Of a stretch of DNA of 64,000 nucleotides, positions 1 through 15,147 are shown one piece after another. The DNA comes from Nitrospiraceae bacterium. GTDB lineage: Bacteria; Nitrospirota; Nitrospiria; Nitrospirales; Nitrospiraceae. The stretch's first letter is position 1. Each line of letters begins with the position of its first letter. A model generated the notes under the pieces. It did no database searches and had not been told where the DNA came from. It worked only from the letters and a program-made list of their open reading frames with translations. A program made the position numbers and the translations under genes. The stretch spans positions 154,885 through 218,884 of the forward strand of contig JBFWWG010000007.1 in NCBI GenBank assembly GCA_050246315.1. The letters are read 5' to 3'.

Positions 1-225
1 AAGAGCGTGAGGATGCCAAAGAGACATGTCGGGATTGTCCAACCGGCCACCCAGGCCCCGCCCGTCAGGACCGCCGCTCCGGCCACAAACGGCATCCCCT
101 CCCGGACGATTGGTATTCCGACCGCGCGATCAGCCATACTGCGCCTGCTAGTCCGTTAAATGCCCTTATTGGACTCTCGAAACCACAGAACCCTACCCTA
201 TCGCAGATGGAATCGAAATAGGCCT

Positions 226-410
226 CAGGACGTTCAAAAAGGCCGACATTCTCACCCCCCCAACCCCGGTGCGCCGGGACGCACCTTCTCTGGGGCAAAG
301 CCACAGTGACTGAAGGGGCGAGGCGTACTCTGTCCTGTACGCTGAGCCCCTAAGCGACACGATAACCCGCCAGGCGGGTACCCCGGCTGGCGGACATTTT
401 GAACATCCTG

Positions 411-413
<3 letters not shown>
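226..413. repeat. MITE-like dispersed element with terminal inverted repeats, abutting the ilvC stop
   Basis: CAGGACGTTCAAAAAGGCCG (226-245) vs reverse complement of 391-410 CAGGATGTTCAAAATGTCCG (17/20); related copies at ~17322, ~37402 and ~50321. Confidence 0.7.
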
Positions 414-2029
<1,616 letters not shown>

Positions 2030-2036
2030 ATTCTAT

Positions 2037-2120
2037 AGTGCTGAGTGCTAAGTGCTCAGTCCCGACTCCTGAGTCTGAGGATCGTTGCGCCTCAGCACCG
2101 AGCACTCATCGCTCAGCACT
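2037..2120. repeat. Heptamer tandem repeats (AGTGCTN) arranged as an inverted pair
   Basis: AGTGCTG-AGTGCTA-AGTGCTC on the left; TCAGCAC-CGAGCAC-TCATCGC-TCAGCACT on the right. Confidence 0.7.
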
Positions 2121-2124
2121 TCCT

Positions 2125-3900
2125 TTACGCGGTCAGCACCGTATCCTTGTCTTCCGGCAGAGCCTTCCCCGCCGCTTCCTGCTTCTGCTTGAGCTCGGGC
2201 GAATCGCTCAAGAGCATTTCGTGGTTGCATCCGCCCGCGGGAATCATCGGGTAACAATTCTCGAACGGATAGGTCGGCACGTCCAGGATCACCGGCTTAT
2301 CAATGTCGATCGCCTCGCGGATCGCCCCGTCCAACTCGGAGACCTTCGCGGCCCGAAGCCCCACGGCCCCATAGGCTTCAGCCAACTTCACGAAGTCCGG
2401 CGAAGTGCCGAGATCACTACAGGCATACCGCCCTTCGTAGAAGAGGTCCTGCCACTGCCGGACCATCCCATGAAATCCATTGTTGATGACGACGATCTTG
2501 ACCGGCAGCTTATGCGCTACCGCCGTGGCCAACTCTTGGGTATTCATCTGGACACTGCCGTCTCCGGCCACGCAGAGCACCAGCCGGTCTCGAAAGGCCG
2601 CTTGCGCGCCCATCGCCGCCGGGAATCCGAAACCCATCGTACCCAAGCCACCGGAGGTCAGCCACCGATTGGGGTTCGCCAACTTGAAGTATTGGGCGGT
2701 CCACATCTGATGTTGCCCTACGTCCGTCGAGACGATCGGATCTCGATCCTTGGTCAGCTCATAGAGCCGCTTGATCACATGCTGCGGCTTGATCTTCCCG
2801 TTTTGGTCCTGCTCATAGGTCAAGGGATGCGCCTGCTGCCATTCCTTGATCTGATCCCACCAGGGCTTGCGCAGGTCCTTTTGCTCGCCGTTGACCGTCG
2901 CCCGAAGGATCTGATTGAGTTCCTGCAGCACGCGCTTACAGTCGCCCACGATCGGAATATCGACGTGAATGTTCTTGCGAATCGAGGTCGGATCGATATC
3001 GATATGAATGATCTTGGCGAAGGGACAGAATTCCGACACCTTGCCCGTGACCCGATCGTCAAACCGAGCGCCCACGGCGATGACGAGATCGGAATAGTGC
3101 ATGGCCATGTTGGCCCAGTAGGTGCCATGCATGCCCAACATGCCCATCGAAAGAGGATGCTCTCCCGGAAACACGCCGAGCCCCATCAAGGTCATATCGA
3201 CCGGAATCTGCGTCAGCTCCGCCAGTTCGAGCAACTCTTTGGAGGCTCCCGAATAGGTTGCGCCGCCGCCGACGTACAGAACCGGCTTTTTGGCCTTCAT
3301 GATAGCGTCGGCTGCCTGCTTGATCTGCCACTTGTTGCCGTCATAGGTCGGGTTATAACCGCGGATCGCCACGGACGACGGGTAGTGGAATTCGGCCTTG
3401 TTCATGGACACGTCTTTGGGAATGTCCACGAGCACAGGGCCTGGCCTACCGGTCGTGGCAATATAAAACGCTTCCTTAATCGTCACGGCCAAATCGTTCA
3501 CGTCCTTCACGAGAAAATTGTACTTGGTACAGGGCCGGCTGAGCCCCACATTGTCGGCTTCTTGGAAGGCATCGTTACCGATCAAACTGGTCGGCACCTG
3601 CCCACTGAAACAAACCAAGGGCACCGAATCCATGTAGGCATCCGCCAGGGCCGTGATCACGTTCGTCATGCCTGGCCCGGATGTCACGAGCGCCACGCCT
3701 GCCCGCCCGGTCGCCTTGGCATAGCCCTCGGCCATGTGTCCAGCTCCCTGCTCGTGCCGAGTCAAGATGACCTCAACGTCCTTCTGCTGGTGCAGCATGT
3801 CGAAAATCTTCAGTACGACGCCGCCGGGAAGGGCAAAGATGGTCTTCACCCCCTCGCGCTTGAGTGATTCGATGAAAATCTCCGCTCCTGTGAGCTTCAT
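2125..3900 (-). CDS. ilvB: Acetolactate synthase large subunit, biosynthetic
   Basis: RHEQGAGHMAEGYA, TSGPG, DVGQHQMW, GDGS TPP-binding motif. Confidence 0.97.
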   Translation of the reverse strand: MKLTGAEIFIESLKREGVKTIFALPGGVVLKIFDMLHQQKDVEVILTRHEQGAGHMAEGYAKATGRAGVALVTSGPGMTNVITALADAYMDSVPLVCFSGQVPTSLIGNDAFQEADNVGLSRPCTKYNFLVKDVNDLAVTIKEAFYIATTGRPGPVLVDIPKDVSMNKAEFHYPSSVAIRGYNPTYDGNKWQIKQAADAIMKAKKPVLYVGGGATYSGASKELLELAELTQIPVDMTLMGLGVFPGEHPLSMGMLGMHGTYWANMAMHYSDLVIAVGARFDDRVTGKVSEFCPFAKIIHIDIDPTSIRKNIHVDIPIVGDCKRVLQELNQILRATVNGEQKDLRKPWWDQIKEWQQAHPLTYEQDQNGKIKPQHVIKRLYELTKDRDPIVSTDVGQHQMWTAQYFKLANPNRWLTSGGLGTMGFGFPAAMGAQAAFRDRLVLCVAGDGSVQMNTQELATAVAHKLPVKIVVINNGFHGMVRQWQDLFYEGRYACSDLGTSPDFVKLAEAYGAVGLRAAKVSELDGAIREAIDIDKPVILDVPTYPFENCYPMIPAGGCNHEMLLSDSPELKQKQEAAGKALPEDKDTVLTA

Positions 3901-4012
3901 GTATAAATCCTCCCCCTCAAGTGAAACAGCCGGGATAGAGCTTCACGGCTCTCCCACAAGTGAGTGACAGACTGTCGAATTCTTATTGGAAAATAGGAGT
4001 TTAAGGGGTGGG

Positions 4013-4042
4013 ATCTTATCACTCGTTCAGGACCCTGGTCAA
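4013..4042 (-). promoter_or_regulatory. Putative sigma70 promoter of ilvBNC
   Basis: TTGACC-N18-TAAGAT with TG extension on the minus strand. Confidence 0.45.
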
Positions 4043-4116
4043 TACCAGGACCTTCGCCCTCCCCTGAGCCGACTTCCTTCCTCCCGGTACAGCGTCATGG
4101 TACAGTGCATTCCGCC

Positions 4117-4440
4117 ATGGCCTCCGAAAAGAAAGAACTGCTGATCTTCAGCCGCACGGGATGTCACCTCTGCGACGTGGTGGAAAAGATGGCTCGTCGT
4201 TTACAGAATGACCTTCACCTGGAGATCTCCAAGCGCAATGTCGAGGAAGATGCCGCCCTCCTTCGGCGCTATGGCGACCGGATTCCGGTGGTGGTGCTGG
4301 ATCGGGTTGAAGTTTGTAGTGGACCGATCACTCAACCGGCGCTGCGAGCAGCCATCGCGCAGGCCGGGAAGAAGGCGCGTTGGAGAAAGCCTATAAGCCG
4401 GATTCTGTCCCGCCTGAGTGAAGCACTCAGCCGGGGATGA
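4117..4440 (+). CDS. Glutaredoxin-like (DUF836-type) protein
   Basis: FSRTGCHLCD CxxC motif and YGDRIPVV cis-Pro motif; C-terminus runs antisense into rnpB. Confidence 0.8.
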   Translation: MASEKKELLIFSRTGCHLCDVVEKMARRLQNDLHLEISKRNVEEDAALLRRYGDRIPVVVLDRVEVCSGPITQPALRAAIAQAGKKARWRKPISRILSRLSEALSRG

Positions 4441-4786
4441 TCATTTCTCTGGGATGCGGGTTGCCCCGCACCTCAAGCGACCTACCCGAGGACCTCGGCC
4501 GGGCCAGCCTTGCGGCACTCAAGGTGCCTCGTCCCCCTATTTGGCCTTGCTCCGGGCGACGCTTACCGTGCCGTTGATGTCGCCACCAACGCGGTGAGCT
4601 CTTACCTCACCGTTTCACCCTTACCTGATCTGTACGAACGATCGCACAGCCATCGGCGGTTTGATTTCTGTGGCGCCGGTGTCGGATCGCTCCGCCTGGG
4701 TGTTACCCAGCGCCCTGCCCCTGGAGTCCGGACTTTCCTCCGGTGAGCTTGCGCTCCCCAGCGATCACCCGGCTTTCTTCAACGCG
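4376..4786 (-). ncRNA. rnpB: RNase P RNA (bacterial type A)
   Basis: Minus strand has GAGGAAAGTCCGGACTCC near the 5' end and CAGAATCCGGCTTATAGGC near the 3' end; P1 pairing CGCGTTGAAGAAAGCC/GGCTTTCTCCAACGCG. Confidence 0.95.
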
Positions 4787-4792
4787 TGGCAT

Positions 4793-4822
4793 AGTATACG
4801 AGTGATGAAGGAGACGCTGCAA
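4793..4822 (-). promoter_or_regulatory. Putative sigma70 promoter of rnpB
   Basis: TTGCAG-N18-TATACT ending ~7 nt before the rnpB 5' end. Confidence 0.55.
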
Positions 4823-4853
4823 ACAACGGCGGCCCGAGACCGCCGGCGTCTAT

Positions 4854-7800
4854 TTAGAATCGCGGCAACTTGAAAAATGACGCTTCGGCCTTATTCTGGA
4901 TCTCGTTCAGCTCCTCCTCTGGAAGCCTCGCCAAGACCGGTGCCAGTCGTTTGAGTTCTTCGACCGTCATGGTGCAGGCCTCACATCGCCCCATATAGAC
5001 CGTACCATCATCGCTGGCCGAGAGGATCCATTTGCCGTCGGGACTGAACTCCACGGAGTTTACCCCTTCACTGTGCCGACGCAACACAGCAAGCTGTTTG
5101 GTTGTCGTCGCATCCCAGACACGAAGCGTGTTATCCACACCACCCGTCACTACCCAGTTGCCATCCCTACTGAATGAGGCGGCGGCCAACCCGGCGCTAT
5201 GGCCTCCACCAAGTACCTTCGACGGACCAGCCCGTTCCAATGGCCAAATCCTTGCCGTCTTATCGGCGCTCGCTGTCAACAACCATTTACTGTCAGGGCT
5301 GAACTCGAGAGATTTGATCTGGCCGTTATGCCCCTGAAGGTCCCTTATGCGAACACGCAGGTTGGTCCTTTCAAAGAGCTCCACGTTTTTGTTTTTTTCA
5401 TTGAGCGCGGCGATCCACTTTCCATCCGGGCTGATCGCAGCCAGCCAGCGTCCAGATTCCTCCTCAGACGCAAGCCGGGGTTGAAGAGGACCCTCGACCC
5501 TCAAGGTTTTCGTCTCCCAGATAGAAATCTGTCCGCTTCGGCTGACGGTGACGAGCTCGTCACTTCCTGAACTGAACGCCGCCGTCAGCATGGAGGTGAG
5601 CCACCCTGGAGTGATCGTTCGATTCGATGTGACGTCCCACAGAATGGGTTTCGTCCTCGGATCGAGGCCCCCGTCAGCCCCGACACCAAGAAGATATTTT
5701 CCATCTCTGCTCCACGACAAAGACCACAATTGGTCCCTATCGACACCATGCAGCTCCCGTGATTCGGCCGCTTTTTCATCGCCGACATTCGTCAATCCAA
5801 CCATGACGGCTCTCCCCTGTTCCTCACCAACGGCCACGCGCGTTCCATGGGGATCGAATCTAGCGTGAAGCGCCCATCGCTCTGAAGCCTCAAGCAGGCT
5901 GGGCGCACGGAAATGCCAAATACGCACCATCCCATCCGCTCCAGCGCTCACGACATGCCGTCCGTCCGGACTGAATACGGCATGAGTGACTGCGTCTTGA
6001 TGCCCGCGCAACACGGCAATCGAGGTCCCAGATCTGGTCGACCAGATCCGTGCCGTATTGTCGTTACTCGCCGTCACGAGCCATTTTCCGTCAGTCGAGG
6101 CATTGGCATCGTTTACCCAATCATCATGTGCCCGCCGCTGTTTCGGATTCATGGTGGCATCTACCCATAGTTGGGTAACCTTTCCCGAGACCGTAATCAG
6201 CGGGCGGCTCTCGCCTGAATCGGGAGCAAACTTGGCAGCAATGACAGGATGCTTGTGCTTGAGAGGCCACCTGTTCGGCACAGGCTTCGCGAGTTGTCGG
6301 CGCTCTAAATCCAACTGCCACACAATGGCCTGGCTATCGTCCCCTGCCGTCACCAATAAGCCCGCATCTGCCCGATGAAATTCGATATCACGGATGGAGT
6401 AGTATCGTTCATGCGTAATTGGCGAATCGTTTCCCTTTGGGCTTTCTCTGGCAATCCAAACACCGGGATGACCCAGCTTCCAGATATTCACGGTCCCGAT
6501 GGCATCACCGCTCGCCAAGTACGTACTATCGTGTGAGAATGCCAGCGCGGTCACCGTCACAGGTTTCGTCACTTTGTGCGTGTAGGCATCCGGTTTCGAG
6601 GACGGGTCGCTTAGGTCCCACACCAAGACTTCTCCGTCGTAGCAGCCGATGGCGACGTACTTATCATCCGGACTGACCCCAATCGTATAGACTCGGTTGT
6701 GTTCGCCCTCGCAAGTCATCAGACGGACGGATGGATCGTCGATCCGCTGGACTTGTGCTTGACCATCTTCCGTCTGTGTGACGAGAGTCCTATTCTTCTC
6801 GATCAACCAGGCGCGCTGGATTGCTTCCTTTCTTTGGATAGGCACCCGTCGTGGGCTATAGGTACTGGAATCGTAAACTGCGAGGTTTTTCCCGCTCGCG
6901 ATCAGCAGAAGGGTTCCATCAGAACTGTAGCGCACATCCGCAATCGGCTCCCCAATCTGGAGAATTCTTTCCGTGTGGGCGGTTTCAAGCATCGCGACTG
7001 ACTGCCGTAGCGCATTCACGCCAAGCTCATTGCTGGGATCAACCGCCAACGCCGCCATGGCAAGATGAGCACTCCGGGCTGGATCCTGATCAATTGCCTG
7101 AATGGCTTCGGATGCGAGGGCACGCGATTGCGCCATACTGGTTCGACTGTTCGAGAAGACTATCCACGCAATTCCCGCTACTCCCACGATTCCAATCAGG
7201 AGACCGAATATTCCCAACTGTCGACGAACTCGGCGCGCTCTGTGCCGTTCCTCACCCGCCTTGCTGATGACCGGCACGAGTCGATCATGGATCAGTTCGA
7301 TCCGGGCCGTATCGGAATGTTGCACCACCCGGAGGAGTCGATGGGTATCTGTCAGAACCTTGATCTGACGCTCAGTCAGAAGCCCGTTTTGCAAGGCTCC
7401 CTCCACTGGATAGTCGCCTCGAAAACGATCGCCTTGGATCAGATTGTCCTCGATAAAGGTCGCCACATCCGGCGGGCCATTGATCGCGGGATCATTCAAC
7501 GCCGTTTGATAAAACGTCTCCAGGATGTCCTGTCCGACCGTTTCCACCAACTCACGATCGATTTTAGAATCCGGAGCACGGCGACGGTTGAGTTCGGAGC
7601 AACACAGGCTCAGCAGCACGGGCTCGATGGTCAGGTTCTCCGTGCCGCGAGCACAGAAGTCGTCATCCTGCCTCCCGACCAAGTCCACGATGCGCGCGGC
7701 CACTCCCGCTTCCAACACTACCGCCCCAGCACGTTCCACAGCCTGTATCGCCGTGCCAGGCGTCATGGCCTGGAGGTGAAGACAGTGGCGGAGAAGGGAC

Positions 7801-8513
7801 GGCACCTGATGCTCCCAATCCTTCATCTGCGGCAGAAAATCCTCTCGGAAGGACAGGATGACCCGATAGCGATGCGACATGAGATCGAGCAAGCCGCGCT
7901 TGGTGCCGTCCGACTCGTCGAGCGACTTCGGGATGGTGTTTGCCACCAGGTCCGCAAGATCTTGGAAGGTCTCCTGTGTGCGACCCGGACCGCCGGCCCC
8001 CTTCGAGAACAATTCCTCGAATTGATCGAACACGAAGACAGGGCTCATGAGGAAATTGTCTGCTCCCCAAAACTCCAAATCACGTCGATGGAGGTATTCC
8101 CAGAGTGTTTCATCCATGGGCATTGGCGGAAACTCTGCTCCCGCCCTTTCCAGCTCGGCTTGCAGAATCGCCTTGACCTGGTTGAGCACCGGCTCCGCTC
8201 CCGTGCTCAACAACGTCAATCGGACGTAGATGGGCAAGAAGCGTTCACTGCGAGGCAAGACAAGTTCCCTCCGTAGCAGGGGAAACAATCCGGCCTTGAG
8301 CAGTGAGGTCTTTCCCAGCCCGGATTTGCCATAGAGAACCGTCAGCGGTGATTGACACACCAACCGCAGAAGCGTGGCGGATTCCTCCTGGCGTCCACAA
8401 AAGTATTCTTGAGATGTTTCGTCGTAGGCTGCCAAGCCAGGCCACGGCTGTTGCGGATTCAGCATCGAGGCAGCCGGTAAGGTCTCGATGGGAGGGCTGC
8501 ATTGAACGCTCAC
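4854..8513 (-). CDS. STAND-class (nSTAND1-like) NTPase with transmembrane helix and C-terminal WD40 repeats
   Basis: PWPGLAAY pre-NTPase motif, Walker A GKSGLGKTS, Walker B FVFDQFEELF, ELIHDRL; TM LGIFGLLIGIVGVAGIAWIVF; many GH...FSPDG...W repeats; GTG 8513 overlaps the upstream TGA, with AAGGAGG RBS. Confidence 0.9.
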   Translation of the reverse strand: MSVQCSPPIETLPAASMLNPQQPWPGLAAYDETSQEYFCGRQEESATLLRLVCQSPLTVLYGKSGLGKTSLLKAGLFPLLRRELVLPRSERFLPIYVRLTLLSTGAEPVLNQVKAILQAELERAGAEFPPMPMDETLWEYLHRRDLEFWGADNFLMSPVFVFDQFEELFSKGAGGPGRTQETFQDLADLVANTIPKSLDESDGTKRGLLDLMSHRYRVILSFREDFLPQMKDWEHQVPSLLRHCLHLQAMTPGTAIQAVERAGAVVLEAGVAARIVDLVGRQDDDFCARGTENLTIEPVLLSLCCSELNRRRAPDSKIDRELVETVGQDILETFYQTALNDPAINGPPDVATFIEDNLIQGDRFRGDYPVEGALQNGLLTERQIKVLTDTHRLLRVVQHSDTARIELIHDRLVPVISKAGEERHRARRVRRQLGIFGLLIGIVGVAGIAWIVFSNSRTSMAQSRALASEAIQAIDQDPARSAHLAMAALAVDPSNELGVNALRQSVAMLETAHTERILQIGEPIADVRYSSDGTLLLIASGKNLAVYDSSTYSPRRVPIQRKEAIQRAWLIEKNRTLVTQTEDGQAQVQRIDDPSVRLMTCEGEHNRVYTIGVSPDDKYVAIGCYDGEVLVWDLSDPSSKPDAYTHKVTKPVTVTALAFSHDSTYLASGDAIGTVNIWKLGHPGVWIARESPKGNDSPITHERYYSIRDIEFHRADAGLLVTAGDDSQAIVWQLDLERRQLAKPVPNRWPLKHKHPVIAAKFAPDSGESRPLITVSGKVTQLWVDATMNPKQRRAHDDWVNDANASTDGKWLVTASNDNTARIWSTRSGTSIAVLRGHQDAVTHAVFSPDGRHVVSAGADGMVRIWHFRAPSLLEASERWALHARFDPHGTRVAVGEEQGRAVMVGLTNVGDEKAAESRELHGVDRDQLWSLSWSRDGKYLLGVGADGGLDPRTKPILWDVTSNRTITPGWLTSMLTAAFSSGSDELVTVSRSGQISIWETKTLRVEGPLQPRLASEEESGRWLAAISPDGKWIAALNEKNKNVELFERTNLRVRIRDLQGHNGQIKSLEFSPDSKWLLTASADKTARIWPLERAGPSKVLGGGHSAGLAAASFSRDGNWVVTGGVDNTLRVWDATTTKQLAVLRRHSEGVNSVEFSPDGKWILSASDDGTVYMGRCEACTMTVEELKRLAPVLARLPEEELNEIQNKAEASFFKLPRF

Positions 8514-9910
8514 AGCATCGCCTCCTTCCGACGAGCCGCTCGGATGAGTATCTGCAACCGTGCGATCGTACGAGCATCGGGTTGGCCGTCCGGAGCGTGC
8601 CCGAAATCCAGGCGTTCCTTCCACACACGGACGGGCCAGTCAGGCGCCTGGCTGACACAGTAGCGCTCAGGGCTGTACTCCTGATCCACAATCATCGGCA
8701 CAACGAATTCTCGGTTCATATCCTTGAACCGCTCGTTCGCCCTACGCCATTCCCTGAATACAAACGCCTCCTCTCGGTTTCCTGCGGAGGATGAGAGCAA
8801 TGGCATGAAATAGCGACAACCTTGGATTCCATCCAAGATACGTTGCTGGTAGTCTTGCGCCGGCTCGATGCTATCTCGGTCGAACCACACCTCTTCCTTC
8901 GACACGCCCAACTTCTGCAACGCGTTGACGACCGCTTCTGCTCGCGGCAGATCGGTTCGACGAGAGTAGCTGACGAAGAACATGGTACGTGGCGGAGGAC
9001 CATTCCTCTCGGATGCTCCAGAAGCCGCGGGTGACGCCCCGTGTTCCGCTCTCCACCGCTGGTTCAATTCCTCCACAAAGGCGCCCGGCTCCATTTGAGA
9101 TAGCACCTCGGTATCTCGGCTATAGCTCGCCAAGAACAGCGTCAGGCTCTCTCCGGGCTGCAACTGCTCGATCAGCCACTCCCGCTTGCTCCGCTCCCGC
9201 GACAGACGGTCTTTGTTGGTAATGCGGAGGAAGAAGCGACTCAGCCAATCCGGGAAGCGACAGCCAACAAACAGAAGATTGCGAGCCTGGAGTTCACCCA
9301 AGAAGGCCATAGGCACATTGCTGCCGCGGGCGATCATATTGTGGGCGTACTCGAGAACATCCTCTTCATGAATCGCGAACACAGGCAGACGTTGGCATTT
9401 TCCGAAGAGGTAGAGGAGGTAGGTCTCGCCTACACGCGTCTGCCAATCAGAGGGAAGGTCATTCACCCCGCTACGCACTCCAAGATTGGGGGAATGGATA
9501 ATCTCCTGAACAGAACAACGCTTTCTTAAACAGCGGGCCAGCATGCCGTCGGGCGTGGCGGTCACCAGTAAGCGAAAACTGGAAATTTCAGCGAGTTGTT
9601 GAATGGGCTTGGGGATCGATGCCTCGTCTCGAGTCAGCTCATCGACGACCTCATTGACCATTTCGTATAGCTCCTGTAGCCGGATCTGTGGGTCCCGAAT
9701 GAGGTGATTCACCAAACCACTGAGCCCCAGCCCTGCACGGCAGAGCGCCGCGCCATTTTCGACCCCACATCTGCTGCCTACCATCTCAGCAAACCTGGCC
9801 TGCAAGTCGCCTCCCGTAATCGGGTCAATCAGCAACTGCGATCCGAGGACTGGAACGACCACACCGTCATTGATTTGACCGAGCAATCGTTTCCACTTTA
9901 GGTCATCCAT
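8510..9910 (-). CDS. SIR2-like (degenerate) N-terminal domain + C-terminal TIR domain protein
   Basis: TIR: FFVSYSR...VWFDRDSI...FMPLLS...FVFREW; N-terminus VVPVLG / LLVTATPD / LYLFGK / LLFVGCRFPDW aligns by eye with SIR2_2 motifs. Confidence 0.8.
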   Translation of the reverse strand: MDDLKWKRLLGQINDGVVVPVLGSQLLIDPITGGDLQARFAEMVGSRCGVENGAALCRAGLGLSGLVNHLIRDPQIRLQELYEMVNEVVDELTRDEASIPKPIQQLAEISSFRLLVTATPDGMLARCLRKRCSVQEIIHSPNLGVRSGVNDLPSDWQTRVGETYLLYLFGKCQRLPVFAIHEEDVLEYAHNMIARGSNVPMAFLGELQARNLLFVGCRFPDWLSRFFLRITNKDRLSRERSKREWLIEQLQPGESLTLFLASYSRDTEVLSQMEPGAFVEELNQRWRAEHGASPAASGASERNGPPPRTMFFVSYSRRTDLPRAEAVVNALQKLGVSKEEVWFDRDSIEPAQDYQQRILDGIQGCRYFMPLLSSSAGNREEAFVFREWRRANERFKDMNREFVVPMIVDQEYSPERYCVSQAPDWPVRVWKERLDFGHAPDGQPDARTIARLQILIRAARRKEAML

Positions 9911-10743
9911 GGCACGCCCCTTCAACTCAGTCCAGCCCTCAGTGGCCCGTCATCCTTCCAGTATTGAACCTGACGTTTACCGCGTCGCCGATCTTCTCGA
10001 ACCGAAGACTGGCGGTACCCAGAGGTTCTGCGCCAGCCCCGGACAAGAGGGTGCATCGCGACTGCTGATCATGTCTTCTCGAGCATTCTCCAACTCACTT
10101 CCACCTTCTGTCTCAATAGCTGTCGATGAGATAGCCTTCTTTAAGCTGAGCGACGGTAGCTCTATCTGCCGATGAGCTTGCCTCTCTCTCCTCCCGTCAG
10201 GGTTGCCACCAGTCTTGGAAAGGTAACGTAAGGTTGGCACGGACTCACGATGGAGATACGGAGCCCGGAGCCACATGCCGTCGAGAATCATCTCCGTCAT
10301 ACAAGCACCTGATGGGGACAGGAATCGGTCAAATGGCGTTTGATCTTCCATGAATAAAATGACGGCCTACGAGCAGATGAAGTACGCAGCGGGACTCGGA
10401 TGCGGTCACAGGAACAGTGAGCCAAAGAGGCAAAGGGCTTGCCGCTCACTTCCAACGGGAGGACCCTACGCTTTTCGCGGAGATGGCACAATCCTCCCGG
10501 CGCGGGAGAGTGGTGATGTATCTGATTAGATACGTTCTTGATCGGAAACGATACAGAGGCCGGTGCACTGCGGGAAATGACTCTCGGGATCAATCGGGGA
10601 CAATGCGTGAAGGCGTACAGCTTACGTGACCCTCTTACCGTGGCGTAGGTAAAAGCTCAGGTCGAACGGTCGCGAACCGCCGGGATCGAGCCATTGAGCA
10701 GCTCGATGGTTGGGTGGACTGAAGGTGATCTTGCGGAAAAGAA

Positions 10744-11619
10744 TTACCGGTGGACGATCGGCGGCAGCTCCGCGCCTGCACGACAACCCTGGGCTGGGCA
10801 CAAGGGCAACGCTTCGGGCAGCCATTCTTGCAACTGTTTGATGCGGGTTTCGTGAGCGGGGTGGGTGGACAAGTATTCCGATGGCGCCTCACCCGAAAGC
10901 TGCGCCATACGTTCCCAGACTCGCACGGCTTCGCGGGGATCGTAGCCGGCCTGCGCGGCGAGCAGCATGCCGATATAGTCCGCTTCGGATTCATGCTTGC
11001 GGCTGAACGGCAACAGGACACCGAGCTTTGTCCCGGCCCCCAACGCCGCCATAGCGCCCGTTCCGAGAATCGGATCGACTCCGAACACCGCCAGTCCGAC
11101 ATTCGCGACCGTCAGCGCCCCCTGCGCCACCACATTTTGGCTCATTCGCTCGCCGCCGTGCCGGGCCAGGGCATGCACCACTTCATGCCCCATCACGGCG
11201 GCCAGTCCAGCCTCATTCTTCGACACGGTGAAGATCCCCGTATAGACGGCAATCTTTCCCCCGGGTAAGGCGAATGCATTCAAGGTTTGATCATCCTTAA
11301 TGACGCTGACCTCCCACTGAAACTGATCGGCCAAGTCCGCATACTTGGATTTCTTGGCCGCTTCGATCACGCGGTCCGCGACCCGCCTGACCGGCTCGAC
11401 CTCACGAGGATCGGTTGCCATCTTCACCTCGGGATCTTGGAGTACCTGCTGATAGGCTTTCTCGCCCAACTGCATTTCCTGACCGGAGGACACCATCATG
11501 AGCTGCCAGCGATCGGTGTACGGATTCGTCACGCAGCCGGCCTCCCCCACCCAGATGACCAGTAACAGCGCTGCCAACCCAGTCATTCCGCAGCGAGCCT
11601 GTGTGGGATCATCCTTCAT
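10744..11619 (-). CDS. M48 family zinc metallopeptidase, probable lipoprotein
   Basis: NAFALPGG, GHEVVH (HExxH), HESEAD, YLSTHP; EAGC lipobox-like. Confidence 0.92.
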   Translation of the reverse strand: MKDDPTQARCGMTGLAALLLVIWVGEAGCVTNPYTDRWQLMMVSSGQEMQLGEKAYQQVLQDPEVKMATDPREVEPVRRVADRVIEAAKKSKYADLADQFQWEVSVIKDDQTLNAFALPGGKIAVYTGIFTVSKNEAGLAAVMGHEVVHALARHGGERMSQNVVAQGALTVANVGLAVFGVDPILGTGAMAALGAGTKLGVLLPFSRKHESEADYIGMLLAAQAGYDPREAVRVWERMAQLSGEAPSEYLSTHPAHETRIKQLQEWLPEALPLCPAQGCRAGAELPPIVHR

Positions 11620-11663
11620 CTGCCGTCACCTCGCTCCCGGTACAATGCGCCGACGCCTGTCGA

Positions 11664-11692
11664 TTGACCCTTGTCTGGGCCTTTGATAGAGT
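11664..11692 (+). promoter_or_regulatory. Putative sigma70 promoter of rnhC
   Basis: TTGACC-N17-TAGAGT, ~50 nt before ATG 11745. Confidence 0.5.
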
Positions 11693-11744
11693 ACGCAACC
11701 GTCACGCGCCCTGCAAGCAGGCCCACCAAGCGGACCTCCCTCTC

Positions 11745-12431
11745 ATGCTCGGGTTTCAATCGATCCCTCGCATCGGTATCGACGAATCGGGGAAAGGCGA
11801 CTATTTCGGCCCTCTGGTGATCGCCTCCGCCTTCGTGTCGCCGGATCGGGAACCCGATCTGAAACTGCTCCAGGTGAGAGACAGCAAGCGGATCTCCGAC
11901 GGCCGCATCTTGGAGATGGCCGGCGATATCCGTGTGATCTGCCCCCATCGCATCGTCTCCATTGGACCGGAGCGGTACAACACTCTCTATGCCAAGATCA
12001 AGAACCTCAACCGCCTGCTGGCTTGGGGCCATGCCAGAGCCTTGGAGAACCTCCTCGAACAGGTTCCCTGCGAACTGGCGATCGCGGATCAATTCGGAGA
12101 TGAACGGTACGTCCAACGGGCGCTCATGGAGCAGGGAAAGACCGTCCGGCTGGTGCAACAACCCAAAGCCGAGGCCGATCTGGCAGTGGCCGCCGCGTCA
12201 ATCTTGGCGCGGGCTGAGTTTCTCACCAGATTACGCCGCCTGTCGGAGGAGGTCGGCGCCACCCTTCCGAAAGGGGCGTCGAATGCGGTGGAGCTGGCGG
12301 CGAAGATGATCGTTAAGAAGCACGGCGAAGCGGGGCTGGGCCGGGTGGCCAAACTTCATTTCCGAACGACTCAGACAATCCTCCGCGATTTCCCGCAGAG
12401 TCACAAGGACTCGCCGGCTTCGTCGTCGTGA
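11745..12431 (+). CDS. rnhC: Ribonuclease HIII
   Basis: IGIDESGKGDYFGPLV, VRDSK, DQF, KAE, VAAASILAR, LPKGA, AKLHF. Confidence 0.9.
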   Translation: MLGFQSIPRIGIDESGKGDYFGPLVIASAFVSPDREPDLKLLQVRDSKRISDGRILEMAGDIRVICPHRIVSIGPERYNTLYAKIKNLNRLLAWGHARALENLLEQVPCELAIADQFGDERYVQRALMEQGKTVRLVQQPKAEADLAVAAASILARAEFLTRLRRLSEEVGATLPKGASNAVELAAKMIVKKHGEAGLGRVAKLHFRTTQTILRDFPQSHKDSPASSS

Positions 12432-13177
12432 TCGTGAGGAGAGCCAGCCGTCGCTGGAGCCTCCACGGGCAGCTCGCCTTCCCAATAGAGGATCCGATGG
12501 CAATAGTCACAGACCTGCAACTCGTCTGAACGCTTGACCTCTGCGATCAATTGCGGCGGGAGTTGCAATCGGCAGCCCTGGCATGTTCCGTCCCGGACAG
12601 CCGCAAGCGCATGGTCCTTCCGTTGCGCCTTGAGCTTTTCGTATCGATCGAGCAGATCGCGCGGTACCGCCGTCGCCGCTTGGCGCTGCTGCTGATCCAA
12701 CTCGACTAATTCCTTGCTCAAGCCGGCATCCGATTCAGCCAAAAGTCGTTGCTCGCGTTCGTACGCCGCCTCCGCCTCCCGCACCCTGGCCTGCGCCGCG
12801 GCCATCTCGTGCTGAAGTCGTTCGATCGATTCCATCAGGCCCAGGATCTTTTCTTCGACCTCACCCTTCTTCTTGTTCGCCATCTCGATCTCGAACAGAT
12901 GGGCCTGATATTCCTTGTTCGTCTTGATCTCGGCGGTCCGGGCTTTCATCTTCTCGATGTGTGATTCCTGTGTATCCAATTCCCGCTCACAGGTTCGACG
13001 CTCTTTTGTCAGGGTCTCGACCGAGTCGGCGGTCTGCTTCGTAGCCTCCGCGGCCGAGCGCAAGGGGGCGTGGGCGGCGGCGAGACGATCAGGAATCAAG
13101 CGGCGCTGGTGCTTGATCTCCGCAATCCGGAGGTCGATGGCCTGCAGTTCGATCAGACGAGGGAGATGAGAGTTCAA
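12401..13177 (-). CDS. Coiled-coil protein with C4-type zinc ribbon (DUF164-like)
   Basis: LIELQAID start, long coiled coil, CQGC...CDYCHRILY; TTG start with AGGAGA RBS. Confidence 0.88.
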   Translation of the reverse strand: MNSHLPRLIELQAIDLRIAEIKHQRRLIPDRLAAAHAPLRSAAEATKQTADSVETLTKERRTCERELDTQESHIEKMKARTAEIKTNKEYQAHLFEIEMANKKKGEVEEKILGLMESIERLQHEMAAAQARVREAEAAYEREQRLLAESDAGLSKELVELDQQQRQAATAVPRDLLDRYEKLKAQRKDHALAAVRDGTCQGCRLQLPPQLIAEVKRSDELQVCDYCHRILYWEGELPVEAPATAGSPHDHDDEAGESL

Positions 13178-13236
13178 CGGTCTCCTGCGGAAATCGTTAC
13201 GGCATCCGGCCGACGCCCCTTCGGCCTCGGCTCCGG

Positions 13237-13313
13237 TGGTGGGCCCACTAGGACTTGAACCTAGGACCAACTGATTATGAGTCAGCCGCTCTAACCACCT
13301 GAGCTATGGGCCC
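13237..13313 (-). tRNA. tRNA-Ile2 (CAT anticodon, lysidine type)
   Basis: GGGCCCATAGCTCAGGTGGTTAGAGCGGCTGACT-CAT-AATCAG...GTTCAAGT...GGGCCCACCA; paired 1:72; downstream of rpoD like E. coli ileX. Confidence 0.9.
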
Positions 13314-13344
13314 AGTCTGTTGCATCGCCGGACACAACCGTAGT

Positions 13345-15147
13345 TTACAGGCTTTCGACGAAGCTGCGCAATTTTTTACTGCGACTGGGGTGCCGCAGCT
13401 TGCGCAACGCCTTGGCCTCGATTTGTCTGATGCGCTCGCGAGTCACCTCGAAATCCTGCCCGACCTCTTCCAAGGTATGGTCGGTCGCTTCGCCGATACC
13501 GAACCGCTTGCGCAGGACTTTCTCTTCACGCGGCGTCAACGTTTCCAGCGCGCTGTTGATCTGCCGCTGCAAATCGTAGCGGATGGCCGCCTCCAGCGGG
13601 GAGACGGCCTTCTTGTCCTCGATAAAATCGCCCAGATGGCTGTCCTCTTCTTCTCCGATGGGCGTTTCCAGCGAAATGGGCTCGCGCGCGATTTTGAGGA
13701 TCTTGCGCACCTTGTCCAACGGCATATCCATGCGCTCGGCGATTTCCTCGGGCATCGGCTCGCGTCCCAGCTTCTGGACCAAATGCCGCGAGGTGCGGAT
13801 GAGCTTGTTGATCGTTTCGATCATGTGCACGGGAATGCGGATCGTGCGCGCCTGGTCCGCAATCGCTCGGGTGATGGCCTGTCGAATCCACCAGGTGGCA
13901 TAGGTGCTGAACTTGTAGCCGCGCCGATACTCGAACTTGTCTACGGCCTTCATGAGGCCGATGTTGCCCTCCTGGATGAGATCCAAGAACTGAAGCCCTC
14001 GGTTGGTATATTTTTTAGCGATACTGACGACCAGCCGCAGGTTCGCCTCGACCAATTCCGCCTTGCCTCGCTTGACCTTCTCGTCAGCCTGGTCTAAATG
14101 CTTGACGGCGTCCTTGATTTCTTCCGCGGACACCAAGGCTTCCTCGGTTTCAATTTGGCGGATCCGCGCCTTGGCCGCTTGAAACACCTTCTTGATATCG
14201 AGGAGGGTCTCTTCAGAGATCCCGGTCTTCCGTTTGACTGCAAGGAAGTCCTGCCGCGTCCGCCCGAGCCGCCGAAGGGCTTCCTGACCCGCCTCCCCGC
14301 TGATGCCAGTCCGCCGCTGGCAATGTCCAATTTCCCGCTCGGCCGCCCGGATCTGATGAGCGACATCCCGCACACGCTGGACCATCCGGTCTTTTAGGAC
14401 CGCATGCAGGTTGACCGCCTCGATCTTTTCGACCAACTGCCCGCGTACGGTTTCGATATGTTTTTTGACCTTTTTCTGCTCCGATTGGTCACTCGCGATT
14501 TGCTTGACCTTGGCACACAGGCCCCGATAGGCCGTCGAGACCTTCCGAACCTCATTAAGAGCCTCCAGGGTCCGCACGCGCAACTCGGTGTCGTCGCGCT
14601 CGCCTCCCTCTTCTTCCTCCTCGAACTCTTCCTCGGAGATCGGAACGATCTCCCGCACCTTGACCTTGTCCAGCTTCAATTGCTCACGGAGGGCCAGGAT
14701 ATATTCGATCGTCATCGGAAGGCCGTAGACGATCGAGGCAATCTCCATCTTGCCCTCTTCGATGCGTTTGGCGATCTCAATTTCGCCTTCGCGGCTGAGG
14801 AGAGCCACACTCCCCATTTCCTTGAGATACAGGCGGACCGGGTCGTCCGTGCGGCTGAGCGCGCCCGGGGTCAGGTCGATTTCCCGTTCGTTTTCTTCGC
14901 CCGCCTCGCCTTCGTCTTCTTCCTCTGCTTCGCGGGATTCGGCCGCCTTCGGCTGGCGCTGAGCCTCCGCCGATTCCACGATATCGATATCCATCTCGCC
15001 GAACATGGTCACCAGCGTATTGAGCTGATCCGGCGACACGACATCGGGGGGCAAGGTGCTGTTCAGCTCCTCGTAGGTGAGGAAGCCCTTCTCCTTCCCG
15101 ATCGAGATCAGCTTCTTGACTTCATTCATGAATTCCTGTTTCGGCAT
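13345..15147 (-). CDS. rpoD: Primary sigma factor sigma70
   Basis: Region 1.1, [53 protein letters not shown]. Confidence 0.98.

Follow-up and report, generated by a model that had tools for sequence, protein, structure and literature searches.

To our knowledge, the prokaryotic STAND/NLR defences that have been studied experimentally (Avs, bacterial NACHT and others) are all soluble: they recognize phage proteins within the cell, and receptor and effector are joined in one polypeptide. The ATPase family nSTAND1 was named by Kaur, Iyer, Burroughs and Aravind (Kaur et al., eLife 2021, PMC8195603), who described members with fused N-terminal effectors or adaptors and with FGS or repeat sensors, and who predicted an NTP-dependent conflict system with swappable effectors and sensors. 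In the source data of their Figure 2 (supplementary file 1) the architecture 'nSTAND1+TM' (TM, transmembrane) occurs 461 times and 'nSTAND1+TM+BetaPropeller' 304 times, and the gene neighbourhoods given there include 'TIR+DrHyd-> nSTAND1+TM+BetaPropeller' and 'TIR-> nSTAND1+TM+BetaPropeller'. Here we describe a gene pair of related design in a 64,000-nucleotide (nt) stretch of DNA from a Nitrospiraceae bacterium (assembly GCA_050246315.1, contig JBFWWG010000007.1, positions 154,885 to 218,884; hereafter the window). Gene 1 encodes a SIR2-fold domain followed by a TIR domain, and gene 2 encodes an nSTAND1 ATPase, one predicted transmembrane helix and WD40 repeats (Table 1).

An earlier note on this DNA, made from the sequence alone, had proposed that the two genes form a split immunity or conflict system in which a receptor without an effector of its own acts on the TIR protein in trans. 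We found that the pair is likely to be a conflict or immune module, and we hold with moderate confidence that it is a two-gene, horizontally mobile module of the STAND/NLR type with its effector in trans; it may or may not act against phages. We favor this reading because the pair is patchily distributed and polymorphic within its genus, is similar across phyla, combines a constant core with a swapped and fast-diverging sensor, and retains the TIR glutamate.

Gene 1 and gene 2 form a conserved unit

Read directly from the sequence, the junction between the genes is AAGGAGG-CGATGCT-GTGA (the longer stretch is AAGGAGGCGATGCTGTGA). The GTG with which gene 2 begins and the TGA that ends gene 1 share bases as GTGA, and an AAGGAGG ribosome-binding site lies ahead of them, both as the earlier note had described; the spacer between AAGGAGG and GTG is 7 nt long.

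To place the pair in a wider set of loci, one genome per prokaryotic species was pattern-scanned, which gave 232 relatives of gene 1, and the best 80 of the 232 loci were kept; residue counts below refer to 74 homologues, transmembrane statistics to 78, and the sensor census to 70 complete gene 2 homologues. An nSTAND1 gene directly followed gene 1 on the same strand in all 79 testable loci, that is, in every locus with room downstream (the contig of the 80th ends 2 bases past gene 1). The homologues thus co-occur, and the coupled pair suggested earlier is a conserved unit. The two genes overlapped in 34 of the 79 loci, by 4 nt in 28 of them, and were 0–10 nt apart in another 35, giving 69 of 79 loci at 10 nt or less, a count that is biased because, of the possible start codons, the one closest to the end of gene 1 was always taken.

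Between gene 1 and the ATPase part of gene 2, pairwise identities were strongly correlated (r = 0.93 over 2701 pairs), with a maximum of 0.17 in 500 label permutations. As a comparison of sequences, this shows co-inheritance and similar evolutionary rates, part of which is explained by shared ancestry, and is no proof of contact. Prediction of a complex between residues 1–450 of gene 2 and gene 1 from 74-row alignments gave a score of 0.26 (mark 0.32, no controls), which counts neither for nor against binding. A conserved third gene was also considered and rejected: the largest clusters of flanking genes occurred in at most 9 of the 79 loci and none was conserved. At one locus, from a deltaproteobacterial metagenome-assembled genome (L016, ~9360–13000), the gene after gene 1 consists of several nSTAND1/WD40-like pieces following a 581-nt gap, either a decayed copy or an assembly error.

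The family is large. A word-indexed search returned 460 homologues of gene 1 (E ≤ 1e-3), the NTPase region of gene 2 had 1315 homologues at the same threshold, and an exhaustive search of 1.84 billion representative proteins returned 405 gene 1 clusters at 50% identity (E ≤ 1e-30), nearly all 450–480 residues long and covered end to end. Homologues at 45–57% identity are found in Betaproteobacteria, Acidobacteriota, Myxococcota, Nitrospira and Gammaproteobacteria, and the hosts include biofilm or floc formers such as Nitrosomonas, Nitrospira, Accumulibacter and Acidobacteria.

Gene 1 combines a TIR domain with a degenerate SIR2 fold

The C-terminal part of gene 1 matched Pfam TIR_2 (PF13676) over residues 311–414 with 53.9 bits (cut-off 28). 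The glutamate that had been pointed out in its FREW motif, E387, was present in 74 of 74 homologues, as was the adjacent W388. Profile searches matched the TIR domain to TIR-APAZ, AbTIR, SARM1 and Cat1 chains, and aligned E387 with Glu77 of solved TIR-APAZ chains, which we take to be the catalytic residue of SPARTA. No Pfam match to DUF4062 (DrHyd type) was found in gene 1 at E ≤ 0.1.

The AlphaFold2 model of gene 1, built from 60 homologues, had two domains and a predicted local distance difference test (pLDDT) score of 87.3. A Foldseek search of the PDB with this model ranked ThsA first (E 4.7e-11), followed by KomC/HAM-SIR2 (target-normalised TM-score 0.65–0.69 for KomC), DSR2 and Avs5 (structures 9jap and 9nc9), and for this reason we assign the N-terminal 290 residues to the defence-type SIR2 fold. 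Pfam SIR2_2 scored 21.8 bits over residues 149–248, under its cut-off of 24.5, which some members of the gene 1 family pass. Because a profile search of the SIR2-like domain alone against PDB sequences gave no solved structure of this kind (only a chance match to parvalbumin, E 0.31), the fold was established by Foldseek and hhalign.

As a canonical reference for the catalytic residues we aligned nine SIR2_2 proteins from the window's genome and its relatives, in all of which the GAG, T-x-N-x-D and H-G motifs are invariant. hhalign matched a 43-sequence alignment of the gene 1 domain to these nine proteins with a probability of 83.5% (E 8e-6) and paired T.T.D with T.N.D and FG with HG, placing T119 at the canonical Asn and F169 at the canonical His. 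Only the first Gly (G23) of the GAG motif is kept; the second is gone. Among the 74 family members, the Asn position is occupied by Thr (69), Ser (3) or Met (2) and never by Asn, and the His position by Phe (72) or Leu (2) and never by His. With Asn and His replaced in all 74 sequences, the SIR2-like domain is, by alignment, a conserved but catalytically degenerate sirtuin fold. The SIR2-like domain of the earlier note therefore stood as a fold, through Foldseek and hhalign, but not as a Pfam match above cut-off or as a domain with the catalytic Asn and His, and the replacement of both hallmark residues throughout the family removes it as a candidate for a second NADase.

Because the TIR glutamate is invariant while the catalytic residues of the SIR2 fold are replaced, the TIR domain is likely the enzyme of the pair, as judged from residue conservation, and the SIR2 fold most likely acts as an adaptor or regulatory domain that docks on the ATPase. 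We also weighed the opposite assignment, with the SIR2-like domain as the real effector, working through a non-canonical site, and the TIR domain as an oligomerisation scaffold only. TIR domains can act as scaffolds, and the block FAIH-EDxLEYAHN is among the most conserved in gene 1, with H181 in 69 of 74 homologues and E183, D184 and E187 each in all 74; moreover, elsewhere in this genome a SIR2 gene with the canonical catalytic residues has an nSTAND1 gene as its partner. However, part of the block (the xED..Y motif) is also found in canonical SIR2_2 proteins and so does not define a new site, the Asn, the His and the second Gly of GAG are all missing, and a scaffold would have no need of the invariant Glu-Trp pair of the TIR domain. 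We regard this assignment as very doubtful and continue with the TIR domain as the probable enzyme.

The exhaustive search also returned one natural fusion (P0359, 1006 residues) that carries nSTAND1, a coiled-coil linker, the SIR2-like domain and TIR in one chain. The Thr and Phe replacements recur in it, a transmembrane helix and a sensor are both missing, and it may represent a version of the module that works without a sensor or under different regulation. Among proteins of 817–2330 residues, a separate search for fused forms gave one weak TIR-only match covering 16% of the query. A few gene 1 homologues have an extra N-terminal TIR domain.

Gene 2 joins a conserved ATPase to an exchangeable sensor

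Pfam nSTAND1 (PF20703) matched gene 2 with 92.3 bits (cut-off 27.1) over residues 23–282, starting at the PWPGL motif; its homologues scored 90–114 bits. The Walker A (GKSGLGKTS, residues 62–70) and Walker B (VFVFDQFEE, residues 159–167) motifs are intact: K68, D163, E166 and E167 were each present in 74 of 74 homologues, and the patterns GxxGxGKxS and DQFEE were invariant (74/74), as was R223. Only 22 residues precede the domain, so no N-terminal effector is fused, unlike in the tripartite layout that is usual in Kaur et al. 2021, and TIR was not among the precomputed Pfam matches listed for the top 120 relatives of gene 2. Intact Walker motifs and the lack of an N-terminal effector had both been anticipated.

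The C-terminal region matched Pfam WD40 with 230.7 bits. An AlphaFold2 model of residues 481–1219 (pLDDT 78.9) contained 56 beta-strands, which form 14 four-stranded blades, with a helical tail after them; this is at the upper end of the 12–14 blades estimated before, and in the model the blades probably make up two 7-bladed propellers. The WD40 region of the window is 21–24% identical to most homologues, in contrast to ~50–55% for the NTPase. Across phyla, gene 1 and the ATPase remain ~50% identical, and the region past the transmembrane helix is exchanged. The C-terminal modules of 48 of the 70 complete gene 2 homologues cluster with the WD40 region of the window and 17 belong to one of three short unknown types; the remainder are TPR (2), a Ser/Thr kinase with multiple transmembrane helices (1), a trypsin-like peptidase (1) and a truncated protein (1). 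FHA, pentapeptide and FGE-sulfatase modules follow the helix in database relatives.

The best transmembrane 19-mer of gene 2 is IFGLLIGIVGVAGIAWIVF (residues 435–453), with a Kyte-Doolittle hydropathy of 2.6, in line with the single helix reported in the earlier note. The 15 residues before the helix contain six Lys or Arg, compared with two after it. A 19-mer with a hydropathy of at least 1.6 lies at the same place in 70 of 78 homologues, and Lys and Arg are richer on the N-terminal side of the helix in 63 of the 78, with the reverse in 2. Because the ATPase must be cytoplasmic and the charge bias around the helix follows the positive-inside rule, gene 2 is predicted to have a single N-in/C-out helix with its sensor outside the cytoplasm.

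Two points weigh against this topology. The prediction uses hydropathy and the positive-inside rule only, and in some relatives the helix is followed by an FHA or pentapeptide module, although the usual place of action of FHA domains is the cytoplasm. The helix could then be a peripheral anchor, a hairpin or the core of an oligomer that does not span the membrane, and the WD40 repeats could lie in the cytoplasm and recognize a phage protein like Avs and bacterial NACHT do, a reading with which the fused form without any transmembrane helix (P0359) also agrees. According to a 2026 survey (PMC13581612), the known antiviral STANDs detect phage proteins intracellularly. Nevertheless, the length of the stretch (19–21 residues), its hydropathy in the window and in 70 of 78 homologues, and the strongly one-sided charge bias argue for a spanning helix, as does the transmembrane label at the same position in the 461 architecture strings in supplementary file 1 of Kaur et al. 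(PMC8195603). We therefore consider a cytoplasmic sensor unlikely and keep the predicted extracytoplasmic one.

The pair lies in a segment that varies within the genus

Both genes are part of a 5.67-kb segment that is absent from a genome of the same genus (G002), in which the counterparts of window positions 1–4856 and 10526–14000 are contiguous at 92–94% identity with a clean junction. In two further genomes of the genus (G001 and G003) the site is occupied by another insert, of 2.67 kb, which holds two tandem response-regulator-HDOD (REC-HDOD) genes (loci L101 and L103, respectively; the site is equivalent to window positions 4829–10744 and is empty in G002). We found gene 1 in none of 60 relatives, of which 3 belong to the genus, 33 to the wider family and 24 to the order. 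The pair is thus accessory, as had been proposed. Neither an integrase nor a transposase was found in the 5.67-kb segment.

On one side the segment is flanked by ilvC, ilvN, ilvB and a glutaredoxin-like gene, on the other by genes for an M48 peptidase, RNase HII and tRNA-Met, and by rpoD and dnaG. The neighbors are indeed housekeeping genes, as the earlier note stated, but the setting lends weak support to its view of the pair as an accessory defence locus. Gene 2 has the RNase P RNA gene as its direct neighbor, and RNA-library contigs there reach summed depths above 100,000. The 3' part of this RNA overlaps the end of the glutaredoxin-like open reading frame (4105–4440, + strand) by ~60 nt, and because of this overlap the true end of that frame may be shorter.

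The 615 bp upstream of gene 1 had no DNA match in the 80 related loci. A 124-residue open reading frame in this part (9977–10351, − strand) was rejected as a gene and treated as non-coding: it had no relative in the 80 loci, and its cytochrome-c-like match was weak (24 residues, 30 bits). This DNA probably serves the inserted segment as a non-coding leader or promoter. A promoter scan of the region gave no more sites than shuffled sequence. A pattern scan found five terminator-like sites, compared with a mean of 4.8 in shuffled sequence, that is, no excess; one of the five, a GC-rich hairpin, follows gene 2 (Table 1).

Table 1. Features of the gene pair and its surroundings (positions in the window).
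Feature	Position	Strand	Description
Gene 1	8510..9910	-	466 aa from ATG; SIR2 fold, then TIR; stop codon 8510–8512
SIR2-like (pseudo-sirtuin) domain	9041..9910	-	~residues 1–290; T119 codon 9554–9556, F169 codon 9404–9406
TIR domain and C-terminal helix	8513..8998	-	~residues 305–466; putative catalytic E387, codon 8750–8752
Coupling signal	8510..8527	-	AAGGAGG 8521–8527, 7-nt spacer, GTG 8513–8511 overlapping TGA 8512–8510
Gene 2	4854..8513	-	1219 aa from GTG; nSTAND1 ATPase, one transmembrane helix, WD40 repeats
nSTAND1 NTPase module	7224..8447	-	~residues 23–430; Walker A 8304–8330, Walker B 8013–8039; Pfam PF20703
Predicted transmembrane helix	7155..7217	-	residues 433–453, preceded by RARRVRRQ; hydropathy
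WD40 region	4986..6980	-	~residues 512–1176; 14 blades, then helical tail; Pfam and AlphaFold2
Segment absent from same-genus genome G002	4857..10525	.	5.67 kb; both genes plus 615 bp upstream of gene 1 that are not conserved
Terminator-like GC-rich hairpin	4827..4845	-	9 nt past the gene 2 stop; in flank common to G002; pattern scan
RNase P RNA gene (bacterial class A, RF00010)	4378..4780	-	286 bits, full length; 76 bp from the segment

A proposed model for signaling by the pair

In the model that we infer, gene 2 would be both receptor and switch, with a cytoplasmic nSTAND1 ATPase, an N-in/C-out helix and a WD40 sensor of 14 blades exposed to the periplasm or the cell exterior, and gene 1 would be the output subunit, with a TIR enzyme and a SIR2-fold adaptor. 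Binding of a ligand to the sensor, or a disturbance of the envelope, would cause the ATPase to exchange its nucleotide and oligomerise. The oligomer would gather gene 1 proteins by direct contact, allowing their TIR domains to form composite active sites, and these would cleave NAD+ or turn it into a signal nucleotide, leading to growth arrest or cell death. Tentatively, we regard it as possible that the pair is an outside-in receptor in which the working principles of Toll-like receptors and NLRs are united: an interchangeable ectodomain (here two WD40 propellers) would sense an extracytoplasmic event, ATP-driven oligomerisation would carry the signal through the membrane, and a separate TIR enzyme in the cytoplasm would be switched on via a dead-sirtuin adaptor. 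Candidate triggers of such a receptor would be a periplasmic phage component, an envelope breach or a foreign cell. No such outside-in route of innate immunity is yet known from experiments on prokaryotic STANDs.

Genes of conflict type (TPR-S, CHAT, patatin and SLATT) are found next to the pair in a subset of loci; those with SLATT_1, TPR-S or patatin genes in the flanks are L033, L011, L013, L034, L037, L038 and L059. Genes for a two-transmembrane SLATT_1/DUF4231 effector and for MAP3K_TRAF_bd/TPR-S proteins recur beside the pair in Nitrosomonas and Nitrosospira, and a patatin gene comes after gene 2 in loci of Nitrospira and Methylococcaceae.

Several observations weigh against a defence module. 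No model in PADLOC-DB v2 matched either protein significantly: the best matches of gene 1 were PDC-S66 (E 6e-4) and ThsB (E 0.028), and those of gene 2 were the repeat-only HEAT-ARM_XIII, PDC-S68 (E 0.004) and AriA (E 0.047). Only 8 of 149 flanking open reading frames (the first 149 of 307 non-redundant ones, from loci L002–L035) matched PADLOC at E ≤ 1e-8, most of them to generic models (kinase, ankyrin, patatin, exonuclease), and most recurrent flanking clusters are housekeeping genes. Of two follow-ups suggested in the earlier note, the PADLOC search agreed with its failure to recognize the pair as an experimentally characterised system, and the search for defence-island enrichment went the other way, the flanks not being enriched for known defence genes. 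The family was not found in 50,697 phage records, IMG/VR held no relative among 23 pattern matches, and a single one of 72,556 plasmid records contained it, a replicon of 2.5 Mb. Because two sister genomes hold REC-HDOD signaling genes at the same spot, we regard the position beside rnpB as one that varies within the genus and not as a hotspot for defence genes. RNA-library contigs from three studies count in favor of the module: they tile both genes at low depth (2–11), one of them spanning 8467–8919 across the gene junction. Such libraries can contain DNA, however, and the contigs are compatible with transcription of both genes without proving it. Positions 8212–8445 in run X15 and parts in other runs are uncovered, gaps from which we draw no conclusion. 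In NCBIfam nothing significant was found for either protein.

Some of these observations would suit a transmembrane signaling or regulated cell-death module that is not antiviral; its cues would come from outside the cell, for example damage to the envelope, competitors, contact with kin or developmental signals, and the TIR domain would make a nucleotide signal for targets elsewhere. Besides the missing phage and plasmid association and the signaling genes at the same chromosomal site in sister genomes, the sensor is predicted outside the cytoplasm, the layout resembles that of receptor kinases (one homologue even inserts a Ser/Thr kinase), and the hosts are biofilm or floc formers. However, patchy spread, presence and absence within the genus and similarity across phyla are typical of conflict genes, as are module swapping and fast sensor divergence; conflict-type neighbors occur in a subset of loci, and no conserved third gene that could receive the signal was found. 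On balance, we consider such a non-antiviral role rather unlikely.

A last reading, that the pair no longer has a function in this genome and is carried as inert, decaying cargo, seems highly improbable to us. Such a remnant would fit a recent insertion that has neither a regulator nor a conserved promoter region, and the 615 bp ahead of gene 1 are unmatched in 80 loci. Against this, both frames are intact over 1685 codons with all motif residues kept, the ribosome-binding site and the overlapping start and stop codons are intact, and RNA-library contigs cover both genes. A mobile conflict module with its effector in trans remains the reading that we favor.

If the predicted topology is true, the pair would be a tractable two-gene model for NLR-type switch signaling across a membrane, for TIR recruitment in trans and for the role of a catalytically dead sirtuin domain. 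The family is abundant and concentrated in nitrifiers, polyphosphate accumulators and soil Acidobacteria, where knowledge of phage defence is thin.

Comparison with known systems

Avs/AVAST and bacterial NACHT share with the pair a STAND ATPase, a repeat sensor and an output domain directed at NAD+, and the SIR2 domain of Avs5 (SIR2-STAND) resembles the SIR2 fold of gene 1 in Foldseek. In contrast to our pair, they are single soluble polypeptides with a fused active effector and recognize phage proteins within the cytoplasm; our pair has a separate effector and a degenerate SIR2 domain, its receptor has a transmembrane helix, and PADLOC gave no Avs or NACHT match. The Avs/NACHT model of the earlier note thus held for the STAND receptor but not for the place of sensing, since the transmembrane helix, the key feature of the receptor, predicts a WD40 sensor outside the cytoplasm.

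Thoeris likewise has SIR2 and TIR folds in one two-gene locus (ThsA, SIR2-SLOG; ThsB, TIR), and ThsA is the top structural match of gene 1. Its folds, however, reside on two proteins, with SIR2 as the active effector and a SLOG or Macro domain that recognizes what the TIR protein makes, whereas in our pair both folds are in gene 1, the SIR2 fold has neither Asn nor His, no SLOG was found, and gene 1 is partnered by a STAND ATPase; the ThsB model of PADLOC reached gene 1 at an E value of 0.028 only. Among solved TIR domains, profile search placed the TIR-APAZ protein of SPARTA closest (E 1.8e-4 to 4e-4), and its Glu is aligned. The TIR domain of SPARTA is activated through oligomerisation of its partner complex. 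No APAZ or Argonaute is present in our pair, and the likeness is confined to the TIR domain. The two-gene EACC1 systems were considered and rejected: EACC1 is a small transmembrane protein paired with a caspase protein (Kaur 2020, PMC7159879).

Closer relatives of gene 2 are found in the window's own genome (G000), which has eight TIR_2 matches in all. On contig C3 (L104, 243000–251000; locus 1932–6287), a canonical SIR2_2 gene (295 residues) overlaps an nSTAND1-TM-FGE-sulfatase gene (639 residues) by 4 nt. Contigs C4, C5 and C18 (L105, L106 and L107) hold three more nSTAND1 receptors, two with the architecture TIR-nSTAND1-TM-FGE (869 and 962 residues) and one DUF4062-nSTAND1-FGE (905 residues). 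Like our pair, the TIR-nSTAND1-TM-FGE proteins and the SIR2/nSTAND1-TM-FGE pair have an ATPase of the same family, a transmembrane helix after it, and a TIR or SIR2 output, and the split pair also has a 4-nt overlap. Unlike in our pair, their sensor has an FGE/C-lectin fold and not WD40, and their TIR is fused N-terminally or their SIR2 is canonical (TSNYD and KMHG motifs); their ATPases resemble gene 2 only remotely (23–41% identity over partial alignments). These related nSTAND1 designs, side by side in one genome, suggest that the SIR2 fold of gene 1 descended from a SIR2 effector acting in trans, to which a TIR domain was added later and whose own chemistry was lost.

A reverse transcriptase gene is adjacent in two of these loci. 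At L104 it encodes 360 residues and follows the nSTAND1-TM-FGE gene, which suggests a sensor diversified by a diversity-generating retroelement; the one downstream of the 962-residue protein has a nearly identical N-terminus. STAND sensors diversified in this way, as described by Dore et al. (PNAS 2024, PMC10907252), are the comparison for such loci. For our pair, diversification of this type was considered and set aside, the 5.67-kb segment having no reverse transcriptase.

In the 2026 survey, which covered 589 STAND clades, a link to defence was scored from fused effector domains or from neighbors already known in defence (PMC13581612). Because gene 2 has its effector in trans and few known defence neighbors, these criteria would tend to miss a clade like it, and neither five accession numbers of the family nor the term 'nSTAND1' was found in seven supplementary files of that survey, the text of which may be incomplete (PMC13581612). 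Our literature search found no paper naming a SIR2-TIR or TIR-SIR2 fusion. In the 12 of 13 supplementary files of Kaur et al. 2021 that were searched, supplementary file 1 included, 'SIR2+TIR' does not occur; six accessions and six locus tags of the family were not found in their table, and the pair was not among the rows examined for nine genus or group names, which for Nitrosomonas, Nitrospira, Accumulibacter and Acidobacteria were a part of those in the table. The family may be present there under another label, for example 'TIR+DrHyd'.

The neighbourhoods in the Kaur et al. 2021 supplement (PMC8195603) nonetheless bear out the guess in the earlier note that similar pairs might have been noted computationally. 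Gene 2 is exactly nSTAND1+TM+BetaPropeller, and a TIR-bearing gene lies directly upstream on the same strand, as it does there. The partner listed in the supplement is TIR+DrHyd or TIR, whereas the extra domain of gene 1 is N-terminal and has a SIR2 fold, giving the order SIR2-like then TIR; and the main text of the paper treats fused effectors, unlike the split pair and the topology described here. These supplementary neighbourhoods are the nearest printed record, and the pair is a variant of the kind predicted computationally in them.

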